The position numbers and the translations under genes were made by a program. The notes under the pieces are model-generated. The model was not told where the DNA came from and did no database searches. It worked only from the letters and a program-made list of their open reading frames with translations. From Klebsiella phage KPP2018, in sequence record NC_110934.1: a DNA stretch of 64,000 nt. One strand, 5' to 3'. Below are positions 42,072-43,975 of this stretch, one piece after another (the first letter of the stretch is position 1; each line of letters starts with the position of its first letter).

Positions 42072-42286
42072 TCAAGCAATCAAATTTTTTAACTTTTTAG
42101 AGGAAAATCATAGGGCACTTAAGGGTAGCAGATAAGTGGTGAGGACCAAAATTTGTGACCCCACTAAAAATCCAGGGGCAATTTTTAAAGACCCCTTGAC
42201 ATTTTCGCTGGGGTAGTGTAAAGTATATGTTATGGATGAGTGATCAAAGAGACACACATTTTCTATATACTAGGAGGTGTCAAAAA

Positions 42287-43279
42287 ATGACAGAAGAAGT
42301 AGCTAAGAGTCCTGAGACCGTCGCTAGCGTTGCAGCAGAACTGCACCGTCACGAGGAATCAGATAAGAAAAAGTGGGAGAAGGTCAGAGCCTACGAAGAG
42401 AAACATCGTGAACACGATGAAGATGATGAAGAAGATGACGATGATGAGTATTGTCATAAATATGGAAAACGTAAAATGCAAGAACCAGTAAACGTATTCA
42501 CTAGTGGCTTCCCTGGCCTAATGGGTGGTTACCCAGCAAACGCAGGTGCTTTCGGTGGTGAAGGTATGGGACTATTCGGAGCTATCCTAATCGGTGCTCT
42601 ATTAACAGGCGGATTCGGTGGTTTTGGTGGATTTGGTGGACGTGGTGTAGTTGGTGAAGGTACCGCAGTTGATGCAGTACTTCAGAACCAAGATACCGCT
42701 AGTATTCTAGCAGCTATTAACACTACTCGTACAGAAGCTAACCAGGGTACTGGAGCTGTTTTAAGCGCAGTTAACAATGGTTTTAGCCAGACATCCCAAA
42801 ACCAGAGCCGTGATACTCAGTCTGTACTAACTACGATCTATGGTACGGGTGCTAATCTGTCTAATCAAATCTGCCAGGAAACTCGCAACGTTATTCAGGG
42901 TCAGTTCGATCTTTCTCGCCAGATTGATCAATCTTTCGCAGCTAACCAGATAGCTCGTGCACAAGATAAGTTTGATTCTGCACAGATCGCTTTCCAGCAG
43001 ACTTTACAAACTAATAACCAGTTTGCCGCTGTTCAGGCTCAGATGTGTGCTAACCAGAACTCTCTGGAACGTCAGATCGCTGAATGTTGCTGTGAACTTC
43101 AGACTGCGATCGCTGGTGTAACTACTGCGCGTATCCAGGATGAGTTAGACGCATGTCGCCTACGTGAAGCAATCGCTGCGGGTAGCGGTGCTAACGGTCA
43201 GGTAATTAATCAAATCGCTTTAAGTCTTGGTGCTATCACTCAGACTCTGGCTGGTCTGCAGGCTAAACTGCCGGCTTAA
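42287..43279 (+). CDS. Low-complexity protein, 330 aa: acidic DEDDEEDDDDE tract, GGFGGFGGFGG glycine repeats with a hydrophobic segment, then a Q/N/T/S-rich region and a C-terminal CCC motif
   Basis: SD aggagg 8 nt upstream of the ATG at 42287; sigma70 promoter at 42196..42224. Confidence 0.7.
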   Translation: MTEEVAKSPETVASVAAELHRHEESDKKKWEKVRAYEEKHREHDEDDEEDDDDEYCHKYGKRKMQEPVNVFTSGFPGLMGGYPANAGAFGGEGMGLFGAILIGALLTGGFGGFGGFGGRGVVGEGTAVDAVLQNQDTASILAAINTTRTEANQGTGAVLSAVNNGFSQTSQNQSRDTQSVLTTIYGTGANLSNQICQETRNVIQGQFDLSRQIDQSFAANQIARAQDKFDSAQIAFQQTLQTNNQFAAVQAQMCANQNSLERQIAECCCELQTAIAGVTTARIQDELDACRLREAIAAGSGANGQVINQIALSLGAITQTLAGLQAKLPA

Positions 43280-43300
43280 TATTAATGGGAGGAGCCCATT

Positions 43301-43717
43301 ATGAGTAAATATGGTTTTGTAAATAACGGACTTAATCAAAGTATGGGCTCCCAGCAGCCCATTCCGGGTCTGGATAACCCCTACTTACAACAATTGCAAC
43401 AGCGTTTAGCAGAAGCGCAACAGATGCAGCAACAACTCCAGCAAAACCCTGGAAGTGTGAGTCCTATGCAAATGATGCAGCAAATGAGCGGGCAGTCGCA
43501 AATGCCCCAACAAATGCAGCAACAGATGCCGCAGCAGCAAGTTCAGCAACAAACCCAACAACCGCAGGTTTCTGCGGAAGGACAGGCAGTACTAGCCCTT
43601 TTCGAAGACTTCGCAAAGACAGAGGATGGGAAGCAGCTTGTATCACTTATGGGTAAGTTTAATAGCTTCTGCCAAAGCCAAGTTGCAAAAGCTCAAAATG
43701 GTGGTAATAACTCCTAA
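43301..43717 (+). CDS. Gln-rich protein, 138 aa (QQLQQRLAEAQQMQQQLQQ...)
   Basis: SD gggagg; co-oriented and 21 nt after the previous gene. Confidence 0.6.
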   Translation: MSKYGFVNNGLNQSMGSQQPIPGLDNPYLQQLQQRLAEAQQMQQQLQQNPGSVSPMQMMQQMSGQSQMPQQMQQQMPQQQVQQQTQQPQVSAEGQAVLALFEDFAKTEDGKQLVSLMGKFNSFCQSQVAKAQNGGNNS

Positions 43718-43726
43718 GGAGGAATT

Positions 43727-43921
43727 ATGTGTTGCAGAAAATCTGTTTCGTGCTGCCCAATGCCTGTAGCACGTTGTTGCTCTTCAGCAATGTTTACACA
43801 AATACCGGCGTTCAATCCGTTTGCCTTTAAGCCTACTCTTATCCTGCCCCCTAGAGTAGATTTTCAGTCAAGGTTGGCCTCCCGTATGGGTGGTTGCTGT
43901 AATAAGAGTATATGGTTCTAA
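43727..43921 (+). CDS. Cys-rich small protein, 64 aa (CC, CC, CC, CC pairs)
   Basis: SD aaggagg; last gene before the terminator. Confidence 0.5.
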   Translation: MCCRKSVSCCPMPVARCCSSAMFTQIPAFNPFAFKPTLILPPRVDFQSRLASRMGGCCNKSIWF

Positions 43922-43937
43922 AGAACCAAACAATAAA

Positions 43938-43975
43938 GCCCCTAGTCGAAAGACTTAGGGGCTTTTCTTTTATCT
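43938..43975 (+). terminator. Rho-independent terminator ending the plus-strand operon
   Basis: gcccctaag...cttaggggc followed by ttttcttttat. Confidence 0.65.

Follow-up and report, generated by a model that had tools for sequence, protein, structure and literature searches.

A three-gene accessory cassette of T5-like phages and the crAss-linked long-helix family of its first product

What is the role of a short operon that runs against the orientation of its neighbours and encodes three proteins of unusual composition? This question is raised by positions 42196-43975 in a stretch of 64,000 nucleotides from Klebsiella phage KPP2018 (NC_110934.1), which is called the window here. A first-pass annotation, made from the letters of the sequence, had drawn attention to this locus as an inverted unit of three low-complexity proteins. 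We find a cassette of one promoter, three open reading frames (ORFs; termed g1, g2 and g3) that are each preceded by a strong Shine-Dalgarno (SD) sequence, and an intrinsic terminator. Three aspects are new: the cassette moves as a unit, with presence/absence variation at a single site; g1 is a member of a large family linked to crAss-like phages; and the conspicuous low-complexity tracts behave as spacers. The features of the locus are as follows, with the predicted local distance difference test (pLDDT) score as a measure of model confidence.

42196-42224, plus strand: sigma70-type promoter (P12 of T5), TTGACA, 17 nt, TAAAGT, discriminator ATATG
42287-43279, plus strand: g1, 330 aa, SD TAGGAGGTG, orthologue of T5.077 (T5p075), PHROG 8119; in order, an N-terminal helix, an acidic spacer, a Gly-rich hydrophobic segment and a long helix bearing CCC
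42311-42418, plus strand: N-terminal helix of g1, residues 9-44, pLDDT 92-96
42416-42448, plus strand: acidic tract DEDDEEDDDDE of g1, residues 44-54, a length-variable spacer, with His-rich versions among relatives
42569-42640, plus strand: g1 segment GLFGAILIGALLTGGFGGFGGFGG, residues 95-118, Gly-zipper-like and hydrophobic, probable membrane anchor or insertion segment
42815-43267, plus strand: continuous amphipathic helix of g1, residues 177-327, about 150 residues, as modelled by AlphaFold with 52 sequences
43085-43093, plus strand: Cys-Cys-Cys of g1, residues 267-269 (TGT TGC TGT), the hallmark of the family
43301-43717, plus strand: g2, 138 aa, SD GGGAGGAG, orthologue of T5.078, PHROG 7894
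43727-43921, plus strand: g3, 64 aa, SD TAAGGAGG, orthologue of T5.079
43935-43975, plus strand: operon terminator (ter1 of T5, 'efficient bidirectional terminator'), hairpin 43935-43965 followed by a U-tract
43987-44018, minus strand: terminator hairpin of the convergent SPFH/Band 7 gene

The window belongs to a T5-like phage. Over the 1951 bases around the operon, identity to Salmonella phage SaI_NFG_5581 (Tequintavirus) is 98.7%, and 232 phage records have a match. In T5 itself the orthologues of g1, g2 and g3 are T5.077, T5.078 and T5.079 (NC_005859), which correspond to T5p075-077 in AY734508, with identities of about 81% for g1, 96% for g2 and 98% for g3. Order, orientation, position, promoter and terminator are the same, and the T5 operon also lies between a Toprim gene and an SPFH gene and carries P12 and ter1; both T5 records annotate a 'promoter P12' and an 'efficient bidirectional rho-independent terminator'. 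T5.077 differs in length (321 aa versus 330 aa in g1) because of insertions and deletions (indels) in the acidic tract. The operon itself is therefore not a discovery: its ORFs, promoter and terminator have stood in the T5 GenBank records for about twenty years. The T5 products are annotated as hypothetical proteins only, and a literature search for T5p075-077 and T5.077-079 returned no relevant mention. Among protein families, g1 matches phrog_8119 (E = 2e-204 over residues 1-330) and g2 matches phrog_7894 (E = 3e-80 over residues 1-138); g3, 98% identical to T5p077, has no PHROG match. Pfam, NCBIfam and PADLOC yielded nothing above noise for any of the three products, and the PHROG families are all of 'unknown function', in agreement with the first-pass impression that these proteins are unlike standard phage enzymes.

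Most of the structural reading of the locus that we started from proved accurate. The proposed sigma70 promoter coincides with P12 of T5, the ORFs of 330, 138 and 64 aa with their strong SD sequences lie where they had been placed, the terminators are indeed back to back (hairpins 43935-43965 on the plus and 43987-44018 on the minus strand), and the quoted motifs DEDDEEDDDDE, GLFGAILIGALLTGGFGGFGGFGG, ECCCE and four CC doublets are all present. Two figures had to be adjusted. The Gln content of g2, given as about 35%, is 27% overall. The claim of a single plus-strand unit in about 45 kb agrees with T5, where T5.077-079 are the only plus-strand genes across 36-50 kb of the reference, the range over which strands were compared; the 45 kb in the window include a duplicated block of 13.6 kb. 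The P12-type promoter is the sole promoter-like site within 41900-44300, has the A/T-rich AATTTTTAAAG upstream and has conserved counterparts in Epseptimavirus and two distant T5-like contigs. For g1 the ORF list offers an alternative ATG at 42227, which would lie at or before the transcription start, and the T5 annotation uses the same start as the first-pass annotation (42287). In g2 a conserved N-terminal helix (YLQQLQQRLxEAQ) is followed by a variable P/Q spacer and then by a conserved domain at the C-terminus, about 45 aa long and containing one Cys. The g3 product is Pro-rich, begins with MCC (MCCRKSVSCC) and contains the four CC doublets; its sequence reveals no signal peptide, hydrophobic signal or lipobox. 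The terminator hairpin 43935-43965 is stable (-20.2 kcal/mol, z = -4.6), and equivalent hairpins are found 3' of g3 in three further loci (L013, L014 and L015).

T5 offers a direct view on whether the phage needs these genes. T5 st0 is a viable and commonly used strain. The record AY734508 covers the segment that is removed in this mutant, with recombination sites at wild-type positions 33667-33683 and 41882-41891. Since T5.077-079 are located at 38064-39671, inside the deleted segment (wild-type 33667-41891), the three genes are dispensable, and the phage survives their loss. The likely time of expression can be read from promoter and position. The discriminator ATATG of the operon promoter agrees at 4/5 positions with ATATT, which is common to T5 early promoters (PMC7472727). 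The early cluster of T5 has been described as containing replication, lysis and tRNA genes (PMC8624392). According to the T5 annotation the cassette is placed among tRNA genes, and in T5-like phages its location is this tRNA-gene early region, far from the late structural genes. The operon is thus probably transcribed early by the host RNA polymerase. No virion proteome that covers the T5.077-079 orthologues was found in the literature; phiR2-01, for which a proteome is published, lacks the cassette.

The distribution of the cassette points to mobility. Tequintavirus and Epseptimavirus (Stitch, STG2, PECP14 and IrmaTschudi) possess the complete unit, from the promoter through g1, g2 and g3 to the terminator, and so do two distant T5-like contigs in which the identity of g1 is about 43%. 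Furthermore, g1, g2, g3 and a terminator are found together outside the T5-like phages, in a 62-kb phage that is unrelated to them and has a portal of the Mu type (Pseudomonas phage RSP, and a Logan contig). Salmonella phage Seafire is without the cassette at the exact site that is occupied in Stitch, STG2, PECP14 and IrmaTschudi. In phage records overall, g1 is present in 221 versus 441 for a nearby conserved block, and the cassette is absent from about half of the T5-like genomes. These comparisons show that the cassette moves as one unit and is a horizontally mobile accessory operon of T5-like phages. In this respect it resembles moron-type cassettes, which likewise have their own promoter and terminator, are inverted relative to their neighbours, are present or absent at one site and spread between unrelated phages. 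Morons, however, are classically found in temperate phages and expressed from the prophage, whereas the present cassette resides in a virulent phage and is probably expressed early. The site occupied in Epseptimavirus, between NAD-salvage genes (NadR-like and PnuC) and the SPFH gene, is an accessory-gene hotspot (Seafire 4945-6951 compared with Stitch 1-3984), which holds the cassette in some genomes of this genus and lacks it in others.

Which parts of the proteins does selection maintain? In six genomes with many substitutions the ratio of nonsynonymous to synonymous substitution rates (dN/dS) is about 0.15 for g1 and 0.1-0.18 for g2, so that both genes are under clear purifying selection. 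Conservation is distributed unevenly along them. The intervals 42389-42460 in g1 and 43471-43557 in g2 are the most variable and indel-rich, with a nucleotide identity of 0.41-0.63 versus 0.83-0.97 elsewhere; the acidic tract of g1 has the lowest identity of the entire cassette (0.41-0.53), and the P/Q spacer of g2 reaches 0.57-0.63. Because the acidic/His and the P/Q (Gln-rich) tracts are the least conserved and are riddled with indels, they behave as hypervariable spacers and not as conserved parts. Cys clusters, in turn, are conserved in all three products: CCC in g1, FCQS in g2, and MCC and CC in g3. An even number of Cys residues was considered as a sign of periplasmic location and abandoned, as even counts are not favoured once the redundant T5 clade is set aside. 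AlphaFold modelling of g1, which the first-pass annotation had proposed, gave an overall pLDDT of 69.4 with 52 sequences. The model comprises a helix at residues 9-44 (pLDDT > 90), disorder at 52-126, a helix at 135-169 and, at 177-327, a single long and fairly confident helix (pLDDT 76-94). This last helix would be about 22 nm long if straight, with CCC in its middle, and its hydrophobic periodicity is 3.6-3.67. When the model was compared with the PDB by Foldseek, the matches were confined to long-helix proteins such as vimentin, none of them significant (E > 3).

Looking for homologues beyond this phage, also proposed at the outset, placed g1 in a large family. A word-based search recovered only 33 relatives, and a profile search over 1.84 billion representatives recovered 654 clusters (defined at 50% identity) at E <= 1e-3 and 164 at E <= 1e-10. 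With at least 654 clusters, the family resides mostly in crAss-like phages, and nearly all of these proteins are 240-340 aa long. Common features are a short motif, F-x-F-P, a single hydrophobic segment rich in Gly, an extended helical region rich in Q/N/S/T/A, and CCC. Of 169 full-length members, 161 have the CCC triplet, and neither of the two subfamily alignments shows any variation in it. The median start of the hydrophobic segment is residue 45 across the family, compared with residue 95 in g1. PHROGs splits the members into 8119, 16490 and 9288, all of 'unknown function'; among 52 aligned members, 43 match phrog_16490 and 21 match phrog_8119, and Pfam has no match for any of the 52. Reliable hosts are diderm throughout (Enterobacteriaceae, Pseudomonas and Bacteroidales isolates). 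Firmicutes host labels on contigs of metagenome-assembled genomes were discarded as unreliable because these contigs carry the same crAss-type module as the others. Distant members also occur in environmental relatives and in prophage-like regions of Alistipes and Parabacteroides isolates.

The family members of crAss-like phages (PHROG 16490) share the F-x-F-P motif, the Gly-rich hydrophobic segment, the long Q/N/S/T-rich helix and CCC with g1, but lack the N-terminal helix and acidic extension as well as g2 and g3 partners, and have an additional C-terminal helical and aromatic tail. Their hydrophobic segments are clearly so, being rich in W, F and L. The gene context differs, too: while the T5-like genes form a stand-alone early operon, the crAss-type genes lie within a head-proximal module. 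There, holin, endolysin and spanin-like genes and a small helix-turn-helix gene are followed by the g1-like gene. It heads a module, found in 75/80 loci and located upstream of the capsid gene, whose further products are a beta-rich protein (about 135 aa), a helical one (about 168 aa), a small protein of acidic character, DUF7841 and a small protein with an HExxH motif. The N-terminal extension of g1 (helix and acidic spacer, about 95 aa ahead of the hydrophobic segment) is present in the clades that have g2 and g3 and is missing from the distant members that were aligned. No MCC peptide of the g3 type was detected in the wider g1 family, and a Gln-rich protein accompanies one subgroup only; the partners are therefore specific to the T5/RSP clade. 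In GenBank, the crAss-like homologues bear names such as 'spike protein/glycoprotein' and 'outer capsid protein/viral fiber'. A literature lead from the label 'spike protein' concerned tail spikes only, and an equation of the family with one of the solved virion proteins of crAss001 was rejected, its head fibres gp21 and gp29 being short and unrelated.

Several loci of the wider family deserve mention in their own right. A 56-kb contractile-tail phage with a tail sheath (L004) encodes, at 5263-5649 and two genes upstream of its g1-like gene, a 128-aa protein with a Gln-rich N-terminus, which may be a coincidence or a g2 analogue. In two crAss-like contigs (L009 and L010, 7001-10062) the g1-like gene and several of its neighbours contain in-frame TAG codons through which the recorded product reads, consistent with TAG recoding in these phages. 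Uncultured phage cr116_1 (L011) carries at 5223-5567, adjoining holin and endolysin, a 114-aa 'hypothetical protein' with an N-terminal lipobox (MLSAC) and a C-terminal membrane span, the predicted layout of a unimolecular spanin (u-spanin-like). At the end of the crAss-type module lies a gene for a protein of about 130-142 aa (L118, 7502-7930; L007, 9552-9932; L011, 9841-10236) that has no Pfam or PHROG name and, given its HExxH motif, is possibly a small metalloprotease.

How might the products of the cassette work? We tentatively lean toward g1 as a membrane-anchored coiled-coil rod locked by its Cys triplet, with g2 and g3 as cytoplasmic partners and an accessory action on the diderm envelope; we consider this possible and well short of probable. 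The Gly-zipper segment would hold g1 in the inner membrane, the long helix would oligomerize it into a rod of about 22-28 nm, and the Cys triplets would lock this rod through disulfides or metal. The N-terminal extension of g1 would stay in the cytoplasm and dock g2, via the conserved N-terminal helix of g2, together with the Cys-rich g3; this docking is suggested because the extension co-occurs with g2 and g3 in the same clades. The complex might then act on the host envelope for a non-essential purpose such as exclusion of other phages, envelope bridging or stabilization, or modulation of lysis. A number of points speak against this picture. The T5-type segment, which holds the most hydrophobic 19-mer of g1, is only moderately hydrophobic (Kyte-Doolittle, KD, 1.72; about +1.8 kcal/mol when estimated by hand on the Hessa scale). 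Summed over the family, the N-terminal flank of the segment has 57 positive charges and the C-terminal flank 135, which by the positive-inside rule speaks for the reverse topology, in which the rod is cytoplasmic. An AlphaFold model of g1 with 18 sequences was poor (pLDDT 50.6), the contacts among g1, g2 and g3 are proposed from co-occurrence, the envelope-directed function is conjectural, and the head-proximal position of the crAss-like genes would equally fit a virion role. Host-takeover and anti-defence functions, which the first-pass annotation had raised, are pure speculation.

Closer to the condensate-forming or metal-binding proteins suggested in that annotation is a cytoplasmic, Cys- or metal-dependent assembly, in which the Gly-rich segment is flexible or peripheral, the rod, g2 and g3 all stay in the cytoplasm, and the CCC/CC motifs with the acidic/His tract bind metal or form a scaffold or condensate. 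The charges around the segment agree with such a cytoplasmic C-terminal rod, as do the lack of signal sequences in g2 and g3, the Cys clusters of all three proteins, the His-rich variants of the acidic tract and a Cys count without even-number bias across the family. We nevertheless hold this assembly to be unlikely, given that the tracts on which it builds are poorly kept in length and sequence, that the W/F/L-rich segments of the crAss-type members are strongly hydrophobic and typical of membrane spans, that the conserved core is modelled as a regular helix and not as disorder, and that neither the three proteins nor the 52 family members match a metal-binding family in Pfam or NCBIfam. The emphasis on condensates or amyloid is thus not supported, as it falls on the least conserved parts; what is conserved are helices, the hydrophobic segment, CCC and the C-terminal domain of g2; membrane association, also suggested there, is plausible for g1 by virtue of the one Gly-rich hydrophobic segment kept family-wide, and the Cys clusters make a metal or disulfide role possible. 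Alternatively, g1-like proteins could be associated with the virion, as coiled-coil head or tail fibres or as ejection ('cargo') proteins that in T5 serve as optional decoration or cargo; during infection the hydrophobic segment would enter host membranes, and the long helix, whose roughly 22 nm suffice to span the periplasm, would help to cross it. The GenBank names of the crAss-like homologues, the location of their genes between portal or lysis genes and the major capsid protein, and the conserved module (beta-rich, 168-aa helical, DUF7841 and small HExxH proteins) are in line with this. However, those names rest on remote coiled-coil similarity only, no solved PDB chain matches a crAss-type member, and in crAss001 a search of 35 kb that include the head, lysis and tail genes detected no member. 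In T5 a virion, ejection or essential role is unlikely because of the early position and the st0 deletion, to which the early-looking promoter and the absence of the cassette from about half of the T5-like genomes can be added. The same points speak against the internal or ejection protein set that had been considered at first, and we judge the virion reading unlikely.

A further possibility is a device for membrane fusion or lysis, in which g1 joins the inner and outer membranes like a class I fusion protein or an i-spanin, with g3 as a partner comparable to an o-spanin. The profile of 52 sequences finds influenza HA2 as its top solved-structure match, running from HA2 residue 2 through the coiled coil (best E = 7e-4, 22 bits), and g1 contains the literal GLFGAI with which HA2 begins (pairwise E = 0.009, from a single comparison with one HA2 sequence). 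A crAss-type member weakly matches heptad repeat 1 (HR1) of coronavirus S (E 0.09-0.3), and in crAss-like phages and an Alistipes prophage the gene follows a holin/endolysin block. Like class I fusion proteins, g1 has a hydrophobic, Gly-rich peptide (GLFGAI...) and, after it, a helical repeat rich in N/Q/I. Unlike them, it starts with a charged helix and has no evident signal peptide, no N-terminus exposed by cleavage, no HR2 hairpin (the model is one long helix) and no hydrophobic anchor at the C-terminus. With marginal scores and matched regions that are all Gly-rich or coiled-coil, we read the resemblance to HA2 and HR1 as one of composition and layout and not of homology or membership. The parallel to spanins of the lambda Rz/Rz1 type is similar in kind: a possibly N-terminally anchored helical protein with conserved Cys is combined with a small Pro/Cys-rich peptide in diderm hosts. 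A hydrophobic segment and a long helix are present in g1, with a charge bias that points away from the topology of an i-spanin. Membership fails because g3 has no lipobox; it also lacks a signal peptide, g1 is twice as long as a typical i-spanin, there is an extra Gln-rich partner, and the operon is dispensable. Moreover, T5-like genomes have spanin candidates annotated at other places, and a separate u-spanin-like gene is present in cr116_1. A fusion or lysis device is, in our estimate, very unlikely. A long shot of the same order is that the whole family of CCC rods forms an unrecognized class of membrane-active devices of diderm hosts, combining a fusion-peptide-like Gly-zipper with a CCC-locked coiled coil of periplasmic length; they would act in the manner of class I fusion proteins or of SNARE- or spanin-type zippers, and the T5-like phages would have captured one as a stand-alone early cassette with g2 and g3 as cytoplasmic regulators, many crAss-like phages of the gut being further carriers.

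Whether all three genes are translated is a question independent of the choice among these functional readings, and g3 is the weakest gene of the three. Its dN/dS varies from 0.13 to 0.64 on few substitutions, and its dS is 3-6 times below that of g1 in the same genome pairs. Gene finders hardly ever call it: in 5.8 billion proteins g3 forms 1 cluster (15 members) versus 116 clusters for g2. Low dS raised the idea that the interval is an RNA element, so that the operon would have two genes and the 200 nt after g2 would be a structured 3' untranslated region or another RNA element. The RNA indeed folds somewhat better than shuffles (z = -1.96, terminator excluded). On the other hand, no Rfam match and no covariation were detected in the g3 region, and its nucleotide conservation (0.93-0.97) is similar to that of the SPFH gene and of the C-terminal domain of g2, wherefore the RNA element was set aside as the principal explanation. 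The coding reading is also supported by divergent relatives. In four clades that share no other sequence there, g2 is followed by an ORF of 60-69 codons with an MCC start (ATG-TGY-TG) and its own SD, and a terminator comes immediately after. The g3 frame is the only open frame in three AT-rich clades, the g3 interval of the 62-kb RSP-type phage having 62% GC, and variable sites are distributed 6:5:13 over the codon positions, with the third position holding 13/24. We thus regard an operon of only two genes as improbable.

Self-BLAST of the window revealed a direct repeat of 13.6 kb in which positions 1-13593 equal 29465-43057 with 99.993% identity. As had been noted at first reading, the repeat junction cuts the first copy of the operon, and this copy of g1 ends at 13593:

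12732-13593, plus strand: truncated copy, comprising the promoter and g1 up to codon 257

At the junction 13593/13594, which has no counterpart among 50,697 phage records, the middle of g1 is joined to pre-early DNA of the terminal repeat (a T5.015-like region), and the duplication is therefore probably an assembly artefact or the mark of a rearranged or defective genome.

On the downstream side, the convergent gene at 44042-44989 (minus strand) encodes an SPFH/Band 7 membrane protein with relatives in 710 phage records, including 170-180-kb Klebsiella, Yersinia and Cronobacter phages and 160-170-kb Aeromonas phages. Inside the stem of its terminator, GCGC at 43994-43997 is the mapped site of the annotated major single-strand (single-chain) interruption of T5, placed here by transfer from the T5 annotation and by sequence. 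Some records annotate a 50-aa ORF at 43912-44064 (plus strand), which is probably spurious since it overlaps the end of g3 and both terminator hairpins. Upstream, 41502-42071 (minus strand) encodes a Toprim-only 'primase-like' protein of 189 aa with a weak PADLOC match (E = 1e-6) to a DRT defence protein, in the part of it that is DnaG-like. A cell-wall hydrolase of the SleB/Hydrolase_2 type at 46615-47082 (minus strand) is annotated as 'endolysin' (T5.083) and is presumably a second hydrolase beside the known endolysin of T5; in distant T5-like contigs this hydrolase family is found 2-5 kb from the cassette. The notion that g1 tracks lysis genes was dropped, the nearby 'endolysin' being this SleB-like second hydrolase and the spanin candidates lying elsewhere.

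The genes of the cassette appear unstudied in the literature searched, and their own biology is of moderate interest; the main value of the operon lies in the entry point that it offers to the g1 family. What is informative in these proteins are their helices, hydrophobic segment and Cys motifs; the low-complexity tracts that first catch the eye are spacers. Of all viruses of the human gut, crAss-like phages have been described as the most abundant (PMC10172136). Through g1, T5, a tractable model phage with a mutant, st0, that already lacks the region, is tied to a large uncharacterized family common in these phages. A function found in T5 would annotate hundreds of phage gene clusters together and might reveal a new mode of phage action on the Gram-negative envelope.

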